Positions 25,312 to 41,696 are shown, counted from the whole stretch's first letter. The stretch: 50,690 nucleotides of DNA, filler included, from Ionaspis alba (GCA_964255285.1; 2 parts of 2 records of this genome joined end to end with filler, not necessarily neighbours in it); one strand, 5' to 3'. Program-made: numbers and translations. Notes: a model not told the origin generated them from the letters alone.

Positions 25312-25411
25312 NNNNNNNNNNNNNNNNNNNNNNNNNNNNNNNNNNNNNNNNNNNNTTAATTAATTAANNNNNNNNNNNNNNNNNNNNNNNNNNNNNNNNN
25401 NNNNNNNNNNN
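25312..25411. other. Artificial contig linker (44 N + TTAATTAATTAA + 44 N; stops in all six frames)
   Basis: TTAATTAATTAA at 25356-25367, centred in a 100-base N block. Confidence 0.9.
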
Positions 25412-33337: not shown

Positions 33338-35981
33338 TTATACACCAAAGCCCAAACGGGATATTTTTCTCAAGAGCTCTTTAGCGCCTTCAGGCAAACG
33401 ATCTTGCAATACATCTTCTTGCGCGTCATCAGCTCCATATTCCCGAAGAAGACGAATAATTCTCTCATTTCCAAGCAAGAGTGCAGAAGGGACTGCCTCC
33501 CGCCAAAAGCCTGATGAATGATGGGTTTTTGCTCCTTTTTTAAGAAGCTCATGGACCAGCTCCTCATCATCTTCAACTATCGCTGCGTTGAGTGGCCGAC
33601 GAAAAGAACTTTCACCTGCAGCGTTGACATCCGCTCCCATATCGAGCATCAAACGCACAATTTCTGCGTGTCCTTGGGATATTGCGACTGTTAGCGGAGA
33701 TCCCTCAGGTCCACCGGCGTTGATATCGCAGCATGTGGCAAGATTGAGGCTTGAGAAGGAAGCTCCATCCGTGCCAGTTCCTAGGCCAGCAAGCCCCATC
33801 ATTATTTTGAGTATACGAATCAACCCCCAATACGATGCATAGTAGACTGGAGTTGCGGTCTTGGATATCCGCGAGAGGCCAAACACCATATACTTACCGG
33901 GGTTTTCCAGTGCTGTGCAAGCCTGTAATGATCGTTGTTCCTCAAACAACTTCAACACAAGAAAATCTAACTCGTTGGTTTGACACGAAATTTTCTTGTA
34001 AAGAAGACACCATTCCCGGGCAGCAAAATAAGCCAGTGGATATTCCTTCCCGAGTTCTAGGTACATTTCAAATCTTTCTTCGTGTTCCTTGCCATGACAT
34101 TTCTCAAGCACTTCAGAACAGCGATCCCAAAGGTGATTGTCTAGCAGGTAAATGAGACAAATATGAAGAAGTTCTTTATGAGCCGTGAAGCTGTCTAGGT
34201 TGAACTCAGCTGGCTTTTCAAGTCGCGTAGAGCTGGATAGCAGGTATTGCTGAACGGAATAGTGAGCGATGCGAGCAATTGGAACCAATTTGAATTCGTG
34301 ATTCTGGAGCGTTGGGTCCTGACCGGGGTATATTTCCACGAGAGTGGGACATATGAAGAGTATATCTTGATGATCTTCAAGCCGACGTTTACGATGGGAC
34401 CCGACCGGTTGATTCACATCAACTGCAACGCCTTCGGCCAATTCAGACACTTTTAGAGGCCTTGATGCGAAACAGAGCAAGGTCAGAATTCGGCGGGCAT
34501 CTTCGATCAAATTTGGATCGATGTGTCTAAGCATTCGCTCGTACGTCTCAGCAAGCGTCCGAGGTAGGGAATTGAGTAGGCGGTCGAGGTGTTCTTCGCT
34601 TCGGGGGCAGAATTGAAGGGAATATAGTTGGCATTCTACCCATCGGAACCTTTATATCGTTATTTAATCACTTTAGCAATGTCATAAGGTCGTTAGTTTA
34701 GGCCACGTACATTCCATTGGCTTTTTCGGACAGTATATTTGCAATCTTACCCCGATATGGGTACCATCTCCGAAGTTTGTGGTCCGTATCAAGGCGAGAC
34801 TTAACATAGTTGGAGATGTCCTGGTCTAATCCTTTATCTGCCATCATAACCTGTTGACTCGTGGGAAGCGCAAGGCAAGACCCAATGTCTGGCTCGTCTC
34901 GGCTGGTGATTAAAAGATGTAATTTTTGAATTTTCCAATTCCGAATTGTCTCAAATACATCCAACACCCTTTGTCGTGGTCCATGTTGGGGACTCTCGTC
35001 AAGAGCGTCTATTGCAATAAACACCTCAAAGAACTCTTCGCACAAAAGTCGTAGGTATTGAATGAGGACTGATGCGGGAGGTGTGCCGGGTTCGTACGTT
35101 TTGTTCAATTGCCGGAGATGTTTATGGTCGTTTTTCAGTTGATTTGAGAGCTGAAGAAGCAAAGCTCGAAGCATGGCTATTTCGTCCTGTTTGGACTGAT
35201 CGCTGAAGGTAAAATAGAAAAAAGCAATGCCGGTTCTTGAGCTGACACTTGAACGCCGAAAAAGAAATTGAATGGCTGTTGAGCATAACACCGACTTTCC
35301 AGACCCGGCAAAGCCATGAAGCCAAATTACCGAACTTTCTTTGGTCAGCCAACTCAAAAATTGAGGACTGTCAATGAACCAACGGCCTGTAGCAGGATGC
35401 TTCTTGGCACAGGCCGCATTGTGTTCAATTGTGGCATCTGGGGCTTTGAGCCATGCGCATAAATGCGACGAGGTTTGCTCGATCCTGACCCGGTCTATGA
35501 GAGCTTTTGTTTCTTCAGATCCACGAAGCGTTTGCTGAGCATTCAGTAAGTTCAGCGCAAGGGAAAGAGTGTTCCGAGCCTCAGCGATATCCTTGTTAAG
35601 CTTTAACAAAGCATTCTTCTGGAAGTAATAAGTCAATCTATTGACTTGTGTTTTGGTTTTAGATTTCAGATTGTCGGATGGTAGCTTTTGAAACTTCTGG
35701 CACTTTTCCTCCAGTTCTTGAATCAGTTTAACGACCTTCTCTAACGACGTTTCGAGACTCTTCATCAAGTCGACCTCATCTTGTTGAAATTCTCGAGAAT
35801 GCAAAGTGCTCCTAAGATTACGAGAAATATCCAGAAGGTCCTCAAGATTATCGCAGATAGCACAACGTTCGGAGTCTTGTTGGAAATATGAAGTGAAAAA
35901 TTCGATGAGCGACAGCGTGATATTTGTTGCTAGCGACACCAAGCCTGCCAGACTCCCTGCGATTGATAATGGGTCAGGCAT
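33338..35981 (-). CDS. Fungal NLR-like STAND protein: HeLo-like N-terminus, NACHT, winged helix and ankyrin repeats; intron 34650-34710
   Basis: N-terminal MPDPLSIAGSLAGLVSLA, Walker A GFAGSGKS, Walker B IAIDALDE, LLITSR, spliced GMFRWVECQL, AHYSVQQYL and ankyrin repeats (SPLTVAISQGHAEIVRLMLDMGADVN). Confidence 0.92.
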
Positions 35982-36501
35982 GGATATTGATTATGCTGCA
36001 ACTTTAGCAGCAAATGGGCGGTAATGCCGTAAGGAAGGACACAAGCCGAAATTCAATGCGGTCTGCACCGAATTTATCGGAGCTGAAAGCCAGGACAATC
36101 GCTTTGAGTACCTTTACGGCCAAATCGCCTACAACGGCCACGTAAGTTTCAAATCTGGAGGCAATAGACGTTGCTTGAAATCCCACTTGAGGCCATTCAA
36201 TATTCAGAGATCGACTTTTGGCACCTGAAGCTGCAATTTTAAGAAGCGACCGAGGGAAGTCAGATTAAGTGAGTGAAATCCGACCCTCTTTCAGCCTTGC
36301 ACGTGCTGCGCCTTCGTGACTGCCTAATTTACCCCCTGCTCTCGAGTTCCCTCTTACGCCACCTTCGCCTCTACCGTCGCAAGCTGAAAGGAAGGCCCCA
36401 GGACGCTCTTGGCGGCCCTCTGCTTAGTATAGAAGAAATAGTCCGCTAATTCAGGCTGTATTTGGACTGCACAAAATATCGAGACATATATTGTATATAT
36501 A

Positions 36502-36965
36502 CTCTGAGCTTAGGAGTTGAGAATCCTATTTCCGTTCGGAAAAGGGAGCAGCGAGGGAGCAAAGCGGCGCAGCAAGGGAGCACCGGGGGAGCACGAGGGA
36601 GCATAGGAGAGCAGAAAGGGAGGAAAAGCACGAAGTGGGCCTTAGTGAGGGAGCAATGCGGCGGTACCGTATATTTGAAACTCGAGGATACTATACACAT
36701 ATATATATATTATATCGACCCCGAACTTAGGATTAGAGATTGCCGTTCGGGGCCAGGAAAGGGAGCAGGGCCGNNNNNNNNNNNNNNNNNNNNNNNNNNN
36801 NNNNNNNNNNNNNNNNNNNNNNNNNNNNNNNNNNNNNNNNNNNNNNNNNNNNNNNNNNNNNNNNNNNNNNNNNGGAAAGGGAGCAGGGCCGCTTTAGAGG
36901 GAGCACAGGGGAAGCAAGGGGGAGCACGGAAGGAGTACACGAGGGAGTATTAAAGGAGGAGCCCG
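36502..36965 (+). repeat. Two tandem copies of the GGGAGCA-rich repeat family separated by a TA-rich spacer
   Basis: Degenerate CTCTGAGCTTAGG at 36502 and CCCCGAACTTAGG at 36719, each followed by GAAAGGGAGCAG and (GAGGGAGCA)n. Confidence 0.85.
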
Positions 36966-37282
36966 TACCGACTCTTAGCAACAGACAAGGCAACACAAGG
37001 GAGTCGGAGTTGGCTGCTTTGTACCTGCATGTAGCTGCCGAAGATCTTTTTATAAATTTTGCCAAGCCTACTACCTAAGCTCAGCCTCCTCTTGCCTAGA
37101 CTGAGGACCTTCATAGAATGCCTACGCGCTATCTGAGGATCGAGAGAATGCCTGGTGGAGACGTCTGCTCCGATCTACTCGAATATGTCAAGAACCAAGC
37201 CACTTATCTTTTTAATTGGACACCAATCTTCATTCGCGTAGAATATAATTAGTTATATAAAACTTATCATGATTATAGGTTA

Positions 37283-37417
37283 GCCGGGGTAGCTCAATCG
37301 GTAAGATGCTTGATATAACCCGCTGAATACCTGAATTCCCTAACCTCTTGTAGGTAGAGCGTGTGGCTCTTAAGAAAGAAAACCTCAAGGTCGCGGGTTC
37401 GAGCCCCGCCTTCGGCT
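37283..37417 (+). tRNA. tRNA-Lys(CTT) with a 53-nt D-loop insertion (37301-37353) and a 9-nt canonical anticodon-loop intron (37373-37381)
   Basis: Acceptor stem GCCGGGG/CTTCGGC, A box TAGCTCAATCGG, D stem GCTC/GAGC, anticodon CTT at 37369-37371, T arm GCGGG-TTCGAGC-CCCGC, and T-runs immediately downstream. Confidence 0.92.
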
Positions 37418-37421
37418 TAAA

Positions 37422-37437
37422 TTTTTCTATTTTTTTA
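37422..37437 (+). terminator. RNA polymerase III terminator (oligo-T) of the tRNA gene
   Basis: TTTTT begins 5 nt after the discriminator base and is followed by a longer T run. Confidence 0.75.
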
Positions 37438-37841
37438 CTTATTTCTATTTTTTGTGCCCTCAACTTCAAAATAGGATGAGCTGATTGCGGTAGTCTTTTT
37501 TTTTTTTTAACTGAACTCTAGTCATTATGGAGTCGGGCAAGTGGCTTAGTGAAGGTGCGGACCAGTTTGATATTGAGTAGCAGACGTGGGTGAATGTCTT
37601 ACTCAGGATATCAGGTTAAGGGTCACACATTTAGTCGTAATAACAAGGGGTGCGATAACTCTGGGCGCATGTATACCATATTGACAGCCGTATATAATAT
37701 GTAGAAGCGGCTATGGACCAGAGCTTTCGCTTTCCAATCACAGCACTGCTTGCGTTCTATCCCATCGCCCGGCGCAAAAACATTAAGATTTGGTCCTACA
37801 CAGGCTTCATTTTCAACCATCCTGTTCCCATTCCCTTACCC

Positions 37842-39723
37842 ATGCCACGAAATCGCGTTGTCAACAATCTAGATCACGTGCCAACTGACCTGTAAGCTAC
37901 AAAAGTTCCTTCCCCCCCCCCGACGAAAGCCCAGGAAGCTTCCAAAGCACGCGCCATTACGAATTGCTTCTACCTATCGGTATAGTAATCTCCCTCCTCC
38001 CATCTTGGCCGACGACCCTTATGAGATCTTTACCCTGTTCTTCGACGATGAAACCCTTACTATCCTCGCCAACAATGCCAATGAGAACGCCTAAGTACAT
38101 CCAGCTCCAGCCGATAAGCCTTATACGAGAACATGGTCTCCAACGATGAAAAAAGAGCTTCGCGCTTACATTACTGCTTACGTTTGGATGGGTATATATC
38201 TAGAGAAAGAAGTTAAGGACATTTGGAATACCGACCCAGCTAAAGGGTTAATACATGATATCGTTCGTTAGCATATCAGCTTGAAACATTGGGAACAAAT
38301 CCAAAAATTCTTCAACGCCTCCAAGCCTTTGCCTTAAGGCCAAAAGACTCCATTCGACAAGCTAAAGCCATTGAGCGAGCATTTGCGGAAGAAATTCAAG
38401 GACTACTGGCATATAGGGGCCCACCTAGCCGTTGACGAAACGACTTAACGATTCATGGGTCGTTCCAAAGAGACCGTCAATTTGCCCTCAAAGCCTATAC
38501 CTAAGGGCTTCAATATCTGGGTTGTGGCCAATCATGGCTATGTTCTTGACTGGCTCTACCATGCCAAAAGCGACGACGGAGGGCCGGTAGACCTTGATGA
38601 TTTCTGGATGGATGATAAAAGGTTCTCGTGACACAAGCGGTGGTATTAGACCTACTGAGTCAAGATGGTATCTCAAAGGACTTCTGCCATACAATATGGC
38701 TAGATAACCTATTCACGTCAGCCCGACTACTAGCTACATTGAAAGAGGAGGGCTTTAGTGCAGCAGGGACTGTTCGAACACAAAAACCCGCCCGAGAGGT
38801 ACCATAGAGACCTCAGGATCCACAATGCAGCGGAAGAAGCTACCAAAGGAGGCCAACAAAGGGTCGGATAATCCATTTCTGCCCTGAAATTGGAGCATAA
38901 CGCTCAACTGGAATAGGACAAATTGTACGGACGCTTGAGCCAAGACGGCCAAGTACTGGAATTCGCTTAGAAAGACCAAAATGTGGTGTTATTCATGACT
39001 ACTATTGACGATGGCCAGAATACAGTGACTAGATCTCGCCGTCAACCTACCAAAACAGCTACCAATGCGCGTACCTCTCGAGCCATATTCGGAGACGACG
39101 CTGTTAAGAAACTAGCAATACCCCAACTCATTGATATATACAACCATTTCATAGGAGGGGTCGACCAAGCCGACCAGCTCCGCTCCTATAATCATATACC
39201 GCGCATATCCGTCGAGAACTGGAAGCCGCTATAGCATTTTCTGTTGAATACCTCAAGTGTGAACCCTTAAAACATCAGCCATTGTATACCTCAACGGCCA
39301 TTCGGTGAACCATAGGATCATTCGACCCACAAGGCCTTTCGAACAAGGCTAGCCGCTCAACTATTCGCTCAGTCGAAACGACCATACACGATAAGTGTTC
39401 ATTCTAGAGCTACTCTCAAACGGCCTCTGCATGCGCAAGTACACCAAGCAAGCGCGGCCGACCATGATGAGCCGATGAGGGTAGGAGACAAACAGAAGAA
39501 ATGTTCTGTATGTGTAGCGAGAGGGAGTAATGTGAAGCCAGAGAATGAGAGACTAAAGAGAAAGCCTTTGGGAGAATTGTCTCAAAATACCATACAATTG
39601 GCCGCTGGTCGCGACAGGATACGCCCAAAGCAGTACCCCAAGGGGCTCTATGGGTGTCAGCTATGTGCTGTCTACGTATGTCGCAAAGGAGTTTGCTGGA
39701 GCGACTATATTCGAGCGATATGA
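37842..39723 (+). mobile_element. piggyBac-family transposase pseudogene (multiple stops and frameshifts)
   Basis: PYEIFTLFFDDE, HLAVDE (38422-38439), PSKPIPKGFNIW, WLDNLFTS, AAGTVR, YNHFIGGVDQADQLRSY and a C-terminal Cys-rich domain (CSVC...CQLCAVYVC...C). Confidence 0.92.
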
Positions 39724-39926
39724 TAGGTAGCTATGTATGAGGAATAGGGGGTGAGTTATCATGGAGGTCGTCGAGCGATGGGATAACTTCATCGCACTAA
39801 AAATCTCCCTCAAAGTGGCTCTATTACTACGAGCATTTTACTACGTAGAAGGATTCACCCCCCACCCCCTATACGGGCCATGCCCCCACGGGGGTCACCT
39901 ACCCTAGAGCACACCCGAACGTGGCT

Positions 39927-41696
39927 TTAATTACCATTGGTCTTTTGAATGCCAGCACACCCCTCGCAGTCAGCCTCCTCACAGATAGTGTAATGATTCC
40001 CTTTGACCTGTTCGATTCGCTTGTACAGACTTGCACAGATGAATCGATGTGGCTGTGATAAAGTGTATTGTTTATCCCTTCCCTTCACGTGGTCTGCCAG
40101 AGAGTTCATCTGACATAGTCGCATATGGGTTGGTGTTTTCCGTCCCTGAGTCACCCACAACTCTCTCCAATGTATTTCTTCCTGCTTCCTAAGAACATAG
40201 GTACACTTAATACGCATACTATACGCAGGATCGCAACGTCGTGCATTTGGAGCGCAAAGGGCAGAAGATGGCTGATTCTCCGCGAAGTCGACCTTGAGAA
40301 GGATACTGAGACCTTCTTGGCGTCGCATTATTTCACCGTCCTCGGTGAGGTAGGGAATTGGGATCTTCATGCCTCGGACGGTCAAATCAAGGGCTATCCG
40401 ATTCAAGTCATTCCGCCGATTAATTGTTTTCTCCCACCCTTGANNNNNNNNNNNNNNNNNNNNNNNNNNNNNNNNNNNNNNNNNNNNNNNNNNNNNNNNN
40501 NNNNNNNNNNNNNNNNNNNNNNNNNNNNNNNNNNNNNNNNNNNCTTGAAGCAAGGCTTCAGACGATGCATCTCCTTGAAGACGAATCTCTTGTTCACTCC
40601 GTCGCCGGCGATGCTCATTATCGATAACGTGGACCAAAGACTGACTAGACTCAAGAATGGAATCAACTGATGTCTTTAAATAACGACTCACCCAGCAAAG
40701 AAAGTCCCAGTCGAAGTCTGAACGTTTGAGAACCATCCCGGACCGCTTTTCCTGATCCCGATACATATAGAGTGCTGGGAAAGGCGCTGATCCTGGTTTG
40801 CCGCGACGATGTTTCTGTATAGTCGTCTCATGTGATTTGGCAGTGAAATCCTTACCACTTAACCAAAGAATGAAATCACATTGTACATCGAAGCGGATCG
40901 CGGCTAAGTGTCCAGACGTCGGGTTTCTATACCCGAATGACGGGTGGTCGATTTTTGCCACGATTCTCCGAAGCGTTGTTCCAGCTATATTGAATTCTAA
41001 TGCGAATTGAACATTGACATCTTCGCATGTGGAAAATGTAACAATCTTGGAAGATTTAGGAATCGCTTTGGTATAGGACTCCCAAGCGCATACTCCGCCG
41101 ATGATAAAGAGTGGACACGGAATAAGATCCAAGACATGTAATGAGAAGGAGTCATGACACGCACGTAACTTCCTTCCCCATGACTTCATAGGACAACCCA
41201 GGGGCCCTGCTGCCGCGCGCCAATGCCAATCAAAACAGAACGTGAATGCGTCTGAAAAGCCCTTCTGGGCAAGCACCTGAACGGATTGGTTATGGGTATC
41301 CCAGAATGGTCCCGCAATGAAGGTGTCCTCGTCTTCAGCCTTGTAATGCTGCACGTGCAATACCACACCAACTCCTGCATCCAGAGGTCCAGAATGTTGA
41401 ACCAGCTTTTGAGACTCTTTCTCGGATAGCTGGAGTTCTTCTTTTTCAAAATCGTGTCGCATCTTCTTAAATTTTGGATAGAGGTCCCCACCTTTCATCA
41501 TTGATAGATTTTGAGGGCTTAGAAAGTCGAAGACCGCTTGAATTTCAACTGAGTTTAGAGACCCAGTAATGGCGTCTGAAAATTGCTGAGCAAAGATTAA
41601 CGGACTTGATGACGAGAATGGCAGCTCTATCGTAGCTGCCGCTGCCGCTGCCGTCGCTCGATCACAGAGAGCAGAGAAAATAGTGCGAGAATCCAT
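39927..41696 (-). CDS. Uncharacterised fungal protein, about 554 aa if the gap is closed by the 5-bp overlap
   Basis: Long open frame on both sides of the 40444-40543 gap. The flanks share CTTGA, which gives a continuous ..SSEALLQGWEKT.. Confidence 0.7.
   Translation of the reverse strand: MDSRTIFSALCDRATAAAAAATIELPFSSSSPLIFAQQFSDAITGSLNSVEIQAVFDFLSPQNLSMMKGGDLYPKFKKMRHDFEKEELQLSEKESQKLVQHSGPLDAGVGVVLHVQHYKAEDEDTFIAGPFWDTHNQSVQVLAQKGFSDAFTFCFDWHWRAAAGPLGCPMKSWGRKLRACHDSFSLHVLDLIPCPLFIIGGVCAWESYTKAIPKSSKIVTFSTCEDVNVQFALEFNIAGTTLRRIVAKIDHPSFGYRNPTSGHLAAIRFDVQCDFILWLSGKDFTAKSHETTIQKHRRGKPGSAPFPALYMYRDQEKRSGMVLKRSDFDWDFLCWVSRYLKTSVDSILESSQSLVHVIDNEHRRRRSEQEIRLQGDASSEALLQXXXXXXXXXXXXXXXXXXXXXXXXXXXXXXXXXXQGWEKTINRRNDLNRIALDLTVRGMKIPIPYLTEDGEIMRRQEGLSILLKVDFAENQPSSALCAPNARRCDPAYSMRIKCTYVLRKQEEIHWRELWVTQGRKTPTHMRLCQMNSLADHVKGRDKQYTLSQPHRFICASLYKRIEQVKGNHYTICEEADCEGCAGIQKTNGN

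Follow-up and report, generated by a model that had tools for sequence, protein, structure and literature searches.

A tRNA-Lys(CUU) gene with a D-loop insert that probably makes its maturation dependent on the spliceosome

Background

Ectopic spliceosomal introns in the rDNA of lichen-forming ascomycetes were reportedly described by Bhattacharya et al. in 2000, and the work of Tani and Ohshima (1989/1991) is likewise said to belong to the prior work among the known systems with which such introns can be compared. Spliceosomal introns are recorded in the genes for the U6, U2, U5 and U1 snRNAs as well as in rRNA genes (PMC5855946), and a lichen rDNA spliceosomal intron is stated to be spliced out of Pol I transcripts even in yeast (PMC8527467). 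A paper of 2025 holds spliceosomal, tRNA and XBP1 introns to be three unrelated classes (PMC12530127). The canonical introns of tRNA genes, between positions 37 and 38, measure 6-133 nt according to PMC4090602. D-arm introns are described, in the same source and in PMC3978253, for nucleomorphs, Cyanidioschyzon merolae and archaea, where their removal depends on a bulge-helix-bulge (BHB) motif or proceeds by an unknown mechanism. According to its description, tRNAscan-SE 2.0 seeks non-canonical introns in archaeal mode only (PMC8450103). A full-text search, with most subscription journals outside its reach, turned up no description of a tRNA gene with a spliceosomal intron.

The stretch of DNA analysed here (50,690 nt, hereafter the window) contains a nuclear tRNA-Lys(CUU) gene, at 37283-37417, that is interrupted by an insert in the D-loop. 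Among the described systems, the insert resembles the U6 snRNA introns of Schizosaccharomyces pombe and other species (and those of U2, U5 and U1) in that it is short, has GT-AG ends and a branch box of the fungal kind, and interrupts a small, structured non-coding RNA; the host gene of the U6 intron is transcribed by Pol III. It differs from the snRNA introns in that the host is a tRNA and not a component of the spliceosome, so that an origin by reverse splicing near the catalytic centre is not obviously applicable, and in that the same gene contains an endonuclease-type intron as well. With the lichen rDNA introns, as described for Cladonia grayi in PMC8527467, it shares the situation of a spliceosomal-type intron in an ascomycete gene that is not transcribed by Pol II, but the host there is a Pol I-transcribed rRNA and here a tRNA of 73 nt. 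Relatives of the window appear in sequencing runs of which some are labelled lichen metagenome. The introns of C. merolae, nucleomorphs and archaea likewise lie in the D-loop or D-arm, sometimes beside a canonical 37/38 intron (PMC4090602, PMC3978253); they are associated with a BHB motif and a protein endonuclease, whereas at the present locus the BHB motif fails and spliceosomal signals are conserved.

Results

Gene structure

The Rfam tRNA model matches 37283-37417 on the plus strand with 38.4 bits (gathering score 29, E 1.3e-4), which is the sole Rfam match at the gathering score across the 50.7-kb window, and the alignment contains inserts of 54 nt in the D-loop and 11 nt in the anticodon loop. 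ARAGORN called no tRNA on the intact window sequence; after deletion of 37301-37353 in silico it calls a tRNA-Lys(ctt) with a 9-nt intron, i(39,9), and the statement of the first-pass annotation that removal of the insert restores a regular D arm was thereby borne out.

All parts of the gene lie on the plus strand. Exon 1 (37283-37300, 18 nt) comprises the 5' strand of the acceptor stem, positions 8-9, the 5' strand of the D-stem and the D-loop up to G18. The insert of spliceosomal type follows at 37301-37353 (53 nt) and lies exactly between G18 and G19, as had been noted at first reading; read from the sequence, it begins with the 5' splice site GTAAGA (37301-37306), carries the branch-point box CTAAC (37340-37344), after which CTCTT follows, and ends in the 3' splice site TAG (37351-37353). 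The presumed branch A, at 37343, is situated 10 nt upstream of the final base of the intron. Exon 2 (37354-37372) extends from G19 to A37 and includes the 3' strand of the D-stem, the 5' strand of the anticodon stem and the anticodon CTT (37369-37371). A canonical 37/38 intron of the kind that the tRNA endonuclease removes (37373-37381, 9 nt, with 37374-37382 as an equivalent register) separates it from exon 3 (37382-37417), which runs from A38 to the discriminator T73 and contains the B box. A T5 run (37422-37426) and a T7 run (37430-37436) directly 3' of the gene resemble a Pol III terminator.

The A-box-like stretch, TAGCTCAATCGG at 37290-37301, and the B box, GGTTCGAGCCC at 37396-37406, were read from the sequence with what we take to be the consensus sequences of these elements. 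Because the insert and exon 2 both begin with G-T-A, the A-box stretch is unchanged in the DNA despite the interruption, as the first-pass annotation had pointed out, and the B box, the terminator T runs and the separate 37/38 intron were found to be as intact as it had stated. The shared start has a second consequence, which is that the cut register of the insert is ambiguous: there are five equivalent positions (-1 to +3), GT-AG among them, and the exons therefore do not force GT-AG. In the folded tRNA, 20 of the 21 stem pairs of the window copy are standard pairs; the T29.T41 mismatch in the anticodon stem, raised earlier as a caveat, is real according to the pair table, and the acceptor stem contains two adjacent G.T pairs.

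Position-based recognition, as used for 37/38 introns, does not reach site 18/19. The D-loop insert of the window differs by its location at 18/19 from the canonical introns, of which the gene has one as well, with a length of 9 nt that falls inside the range of 6-133 nt (PMC4090602).

The first-pass annotation had also noted that the insert matches the mRNA introns of the window in size and signals. Seven sites in the window are candidate mRNA introns of the form GT..CTRAY..YAG, with shorter readings of 43-65 nt, and the D-loop inserts of all lineages discussed below (49-53 nt) fall inside this range; the size match is therefore a heuristic one, made with candidate introns that were delimited by ORF continuity only.

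Two other kinds of element were considered for the insert and rejected. A group I intron needs some hundreds of nt for its catalytic core, as against the 53 nt of the insert, for which there is no Rfam intron match. A mobile repeat, which the first-pass annotation had named as an outcome that would speak against its reading, is not indicated either: the insert sequence occurs once only in the window plus the related loci, and its depth is that of a single contig in four sequencing runs (see below).

Deeper relatives

The metagenome scan employed a pattern that consisted of the end of exon 1, GTRNG, 25-55 nt, YAG and the start of exon 2, and could find only D-loop inserts that bear GTRNG and YAG. 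Six loci were recovered, five of which belong to three lineages whose tRNA-Lys(CTT) genes have an insert of 49-52 nt in exactly this place, namely L001/L002 (99.5% alike), L003/L004 (99% alike) and L005. The sixth (L006) is a chance match of the pattern without a tRNA body and was excluded from all counts. The cross-species search for split tRNA halves that had been suggested at the outset thus added three lineages with an insert at this site. The locus orthologous to that of the window is L001, with a flank that is 68% alike over 597 nt and two further blocks at 84% and 88%; L003/L004 and L005 have nothing in common with the window outside the gene. A signal-blind pattern (end of exon 1, any 35-65 nt, exon 2 up to the anticodon) gave 0 matches in prokaryote and 0 in viral contigs, a blank that is expected because these collections are prokaryote and viral.

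None of the unedited copies was called by ARAGORN, and Rfam at its gathering score missed five of the six, that is all five metagenome copies, in agreement with the expectation that standard scanners could miss the gene. With the insert removed, ARAGORN called tRNA-Lys(ctt) in four of six constructs (window, L003, L004 and L005), and a canonical 37/38 intron of 8-10 nt is present in L003, L004 and L005. The constructs of L001 and L002 fail because the T arm is deleted: the T-loop and the 3' strand of the T-stem are absent at L001:5090-5110 and at the matching place in L002, and L002 shows a further 4-nt difference from L001 at that deletion. The intron of L001/L002 still has all splice signals in spite of this loss, and the gene looks like a recently dead, decaying copy, which implies that the interrupted copy would be dispensable in at least one lineage.

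The tRNA body is otherwise well preserved. Window and L001 agree at each of the 55 exon positions that can be compared, as counted on the alignment (18/18 in exon 1), versus 35/54 in the intron; judged by this comparison, the exons are under strong purifying selection. All 21 stem pairs are standard in L003 and likewise in L005, and there are five pairs of which both partners differ among window, L003 and L005: 4-69 (G-C or C-G), 7-66 (G-C, A-T or T-A), 29-41 (T.T, G-C or A-T, the first of these in the window), 31-39 (G-C or A-T) and 50-64 (C-G or T-A). When L003 is compared with L005, six of the seven exon differences, counted on the alignment, constitute three compensating pairs. A tRNA pseudogene or tRNA-derived repeat was rejected in view of the conserved exons, the compensatory changes and the single-copy insert, with the T arm of L001/L002 as the exception.

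These conserved stems and signals also bear on the possibility that the insert simply stays in the RNA, or that the locus functions as DNA only, be it as a TFIIIC/Pol III site or as the source of a tRNA-like RNA with an enlarged D-loop. Either version would leave unexplained why GT..CTAAY..YAG is conserved around a free interior and why compensatory changes extend across all four stems, and we regard it as highly improbable.

Intron signals and chance controls

Since the scan pattern demanded G1, T2, R3, G5 and YAG, these positions are imposed in the three metagenome lineages and are not free observations there; free observations in those loci are the branch box, positions +4 and +6, the degree to which the interior has diverged, and the tRNA body. 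For the window and the four related runs (X2-X5, see below) the GT signals are unimposed. Statistics per lineage, for the signals as well as for the BHB motif, were calculated on the window, L001, L003 and L005, with the near-copies L002 and L004 left out.

The inserts of these four lineages read, in the order of length, 5' splice site, branch box and 3' splice site, 53 nt, GTAAGA, CTAAC and TAG (window), 52 nt, GTATGA, CTAAT and TAG (L001), 49 nt, GTAAGT, CTAAT and TAG (L003), and 50 nt, GTAAGT, CTAAT and CAG (L005). All four start with GT in an extended 5' splice site of the fungal kind, as belongs to U2-type GT-AG introns. All four also contain a CTRAY box whose branch A is followed by 10, 10, 11 and 12 nt, respectively, and a box in such a position is expected by chance at 0.055-0.076 per lineage (20000 shuffles); the lineages do not count as independent of one another. 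The interior is identical at 27/45 positions between window and L001 and at 27/44 between L003 and L005, that is within the two groups, and between these two deep groups at 23/47 to 27/50 (46-54%), where shuffled sequences give 0.49 +/- 0.04. Decay of the signals at the pace of the interior, one of the outcomes by which the first-pass annotation would have considered its reading refuted, is thus not what is seen: the interior is randomised between the two deep groups and the branch box is kept in all four lineages. A randomised interior combined with a branch box at a fixed distance is the pattern that would be expected of a spliceosomal intron.

As a chance control, 1381 segments of the form GT[AG]NG...YAG, 35-90 nt long, were removed singly from the window and from L001, L003, L004 and L005. 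A tRNA across the junction resulted in only seven of the 1381 constructs, all at the four known genes, and this exhaustive GT..AG removal followed by ARAGORN revealed no other split tRNAs in the window and the four loci. Three of the seven constructs make use of a second AG. This AG is located 4 nt downstream of the first, in an exonic GTAG that directly follows the YAG (window 37351-37357; the same in L001, L003 and L005). Constructs joined at the second AG lose four bases of the D-arm and are still called by ARAGORN, as a weaker tRNA; because its use would delete these four bases, the first AG must be chosen.

The ambiguity of the register, by which GT-AG is unforced, could be taken in favour of a different route of removal, in which the tRNA endonuclease, or another nuclease together with a ligase, would excise the insert. 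We searched for the BHB motif in the geometry that we take to define it (one base after each cut, a 4-nt central strand, and outer and inner helices, with bulges of 3 nt at both cut sites). A complete central helix (4/4) was formed in 0 of the 20 combinations of four lineages and five registers; the best fit, in L001 only, has a central helix of 3/4 with 0-1 of three outer pairs. The absence of a strict BHB at any register in any of the four lineages argues against the endonuclease, and the conserved primary-sequence signals of the spliceosomal kind have no role on such a route. According to PMC4090602 and PMC3978253, D-arm introns that are removed by proteins do exist in some eukaryotes, but the nucleomorph inserts measure 3-24 nt. 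Taken together this makes nucleolytic excision very unlikely in our estimation, and excision by the spliceosome remains the reading that we follow below.

The longest T run inside the intron is 2 in all four lineages, which is compatible with transcription by Pol III, although the absence of longer runs is not significant, given that 78% of shuffles are without a run above 3. Downstream, each of the four lineages has a T run of at least 5 that lies no more than 10 nt beyond the gene. These features are of relevance for another alternative, which keeps the spliceosome but lets it remove the insert from a Pol II precursor, from which RNase P and RNase Z would later release the tRNA. The recruitment of the spliceosome is, as a matter of general knowledge, normally coupled to Pol II, and an A/T-rich, TATA-like stretch is present upstream of the gene at 37254-37262. 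This stretch was rejected as a signal, as the sequence is altered in close relatives, at 37259-37277. The terminal T runs in all lineages and the intact A and B boxes speak rather for a Pol III transcript, and spliceosomal introns are documented in genes of Pol III (U6) and Pol I (rRNA), so that we consider a Pol II precursor unlikely.

Close relatives

Part of 36874-40443 is contained in 20 DNA runs from ten studies, some of which are labelled lichen metagenome or air metagenome. For four of them (X2-X5) the contigs were compared with the window at a likeness of at least 85%. In each of the four, one orthologous contig extends across the locus, insert included, and there is no joint that leaves the insert out. 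The X2 contig (36876-37411) shows 16 differences from the window, distributed as 15 in the 5' flank, one in the intron interior and none in the exons. The change 37337 T>A, in the intron interior, is common to all four runs, and among the differences listed for X3-X5 there is a 3-nt deletion in X5 at 37317, also in the interior. As far as these contigs tell, the insert is fixed in the close relatives; the divergence of X2-X5 amounts to a few per cent, which is too close to separate signal from interior. In each of the four runs, the bin containing most of the insert has a summed depth equal to that of the single orthologous contig (nearly so in X5), from which it follows that these assemblies do not contain the insert as a repeat.

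In X2, X3 and X5 there are further contigs whose match is confined to 37353-37417, the final insert base plus the rest of the gene. An additional C follows 37375 in the canonical intron of these contigs, and one of them seems to start with A instead of G. The letters that precede the match in these three runs resemble the end of exon 1, which suggests that the contigs represent uninterrupted tRNA-Lys paralogues in the same genomes. As such paralogues are apparent, the interrupted copy may be redundant.

Redundancy is the starting point of the view that the locus is a dead or dying copy, in which a neutral insert sits in a superfluous tRNA-Lys paralogue, is never removed and leaves no working tRNA behind. 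Apart from the apparent uninterrupted paralogues, the loss of part of the T arm in L001/L002 and the T.T mismatch plus two G.T pairs of the window copy fit such a view, and insertions in the D- or T-arm of eukaryotic tRNA genes are usually taken as a mark of pseudogenes, as stated in the review by Yoshihisa (PMC4090602). A dead gene would not, however, be expected to display exons that are identical at 55 of 55 positions between window and L001, against 68% in the flank and 35/54 in the intron, nor exon differences between L003 and L005 that compensate each other in six of seven cases and leave 21/21 standard pairs in both. Moreover, the splice signals are kept over a randomised interior, and a neutral insert would not hold CTAAY at 10-12 nt in four lineages. 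On balance it appears improbable that the insert is a neutral one in a dead or dying copy, and the comparisons point to an intron of spliceosomal type in a gene that is retained.

Genomic surroundings

The gene is located 410 nt downstream of one of eight N runs in the window. Six of these are 100 bases long (e.g. 36774-36873 and 40444-40543) and two have 44 bases (25312-25355 and 25368-25411), and their regular lengths suggest assembly gaps or left-out stretches. On either side of the nearest run a purine-rich tandem repeat of the AGGGAGCAGC type is found, at 36541-36626 and 36874-36992. In the related runs many other contigs map to 36874-36992, with a summed depth of some 10-30 times that of the neighbouring bins; this accumulation indicates a dispersed or satellite-like repeat. 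Downstream of the gene, about 2 kb of the window (37757-39837) are missing between matching blocks of L001. The two ORFs within this segment (38971-39234 and 39316-39723) have no Pfam match, one X4 contig skips 38722-38951, and the segment may be an inserted element. On the minus strand, 33338-35990 encodes a fungal NLR-type gene with a PigL_N-like N-terminus, an NPHP3_N/NACHT domain and ankyrin repeats; it comprises two ORFs, and the short gap between these is probably an intron.

Discussion

The comparisons made above support the reading of the D-loop insert as a spliceosomal intron, and we think it likely that the spliceosome is what excises it. The locus would then act as a functional nuclear tRNA-Lys(CUU) gene in a filamentous fungus and would contain two introns of different kinds. 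Transcription would proceed from the internal A and B boxes, presumably by Pol III, and stop at the T5/T7 runs. In the transcript the spliceosome would recognise G|GUAAGA, CUAAC (with 37343 as the branch A) and UAG|, and the 53-nt intron would leave as a lariat, by which G18 is rejoined to G19 so that the D arm can then fold. The tRNA splicing endonuclease and a ligase would subsequently cut out the 9-nt 37/38 intron, and end processing would come afterwards; that the spliceosome acts before the tRNA endonuclease is the order that we presume.

The occupation of the same site in at least four lineages would make the D-loop intron old and vertically inherited, with splice signals that are under selection while the interior drifts. 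Extended to the group as a whole, the proposal is that an ascomycete clade keeps by selection a spliceosome-dependent tRNA-Lys(CUU), made as a Pol III transcript of about 135 nt that passes through both the spliceosome and the tRNA endonuclease. To this broader statement, which is derived from comparative sequence analysis, we give slightly more credence than to its negation.

Conclusion

The tRNA-Lys(CUU) with the D-loop insert probably needs the spliceosome to mature, as far as can be judged from conserved signals and tRNA structure, and the insert is probably a further case of the ectopic spliceosomal introns in Pol I and Pol III genes and a new kind of tRNA interruption. If this is true, it would break the division that assigns the introns of tRNAs to the endonuclease and spliceosomal ones to the transcripts of Pol II (as drawn in PMC12530127), and a tRNA would join U6 and rRNA on the short list of spliced products of Pol I and Pol III. 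The gene would in addition offer a compact natural substrate for the study of how the spliceosome finds an uncapped, structured Pol III transcript, and would lead one to ask by what route an intron entered the D-loop of a tRNA. It would also stand for a further class of tRNA introns that is invisible to standard tRNA annotation and may extend to other isotypes; given that ARAGORN missed every one of these copies and Rfam, at its gathering score, five of the six, and that tRNAscan-SE 2.0 provides for non-canonical introns in archaeal mode only, the tRNA counts of fungi may be systematically short. For the fungi that carry it, the intron may couple the supply of a tRNA to splicing capacity, as has been proposed for the spliceosomal introns of lichen rDNA.
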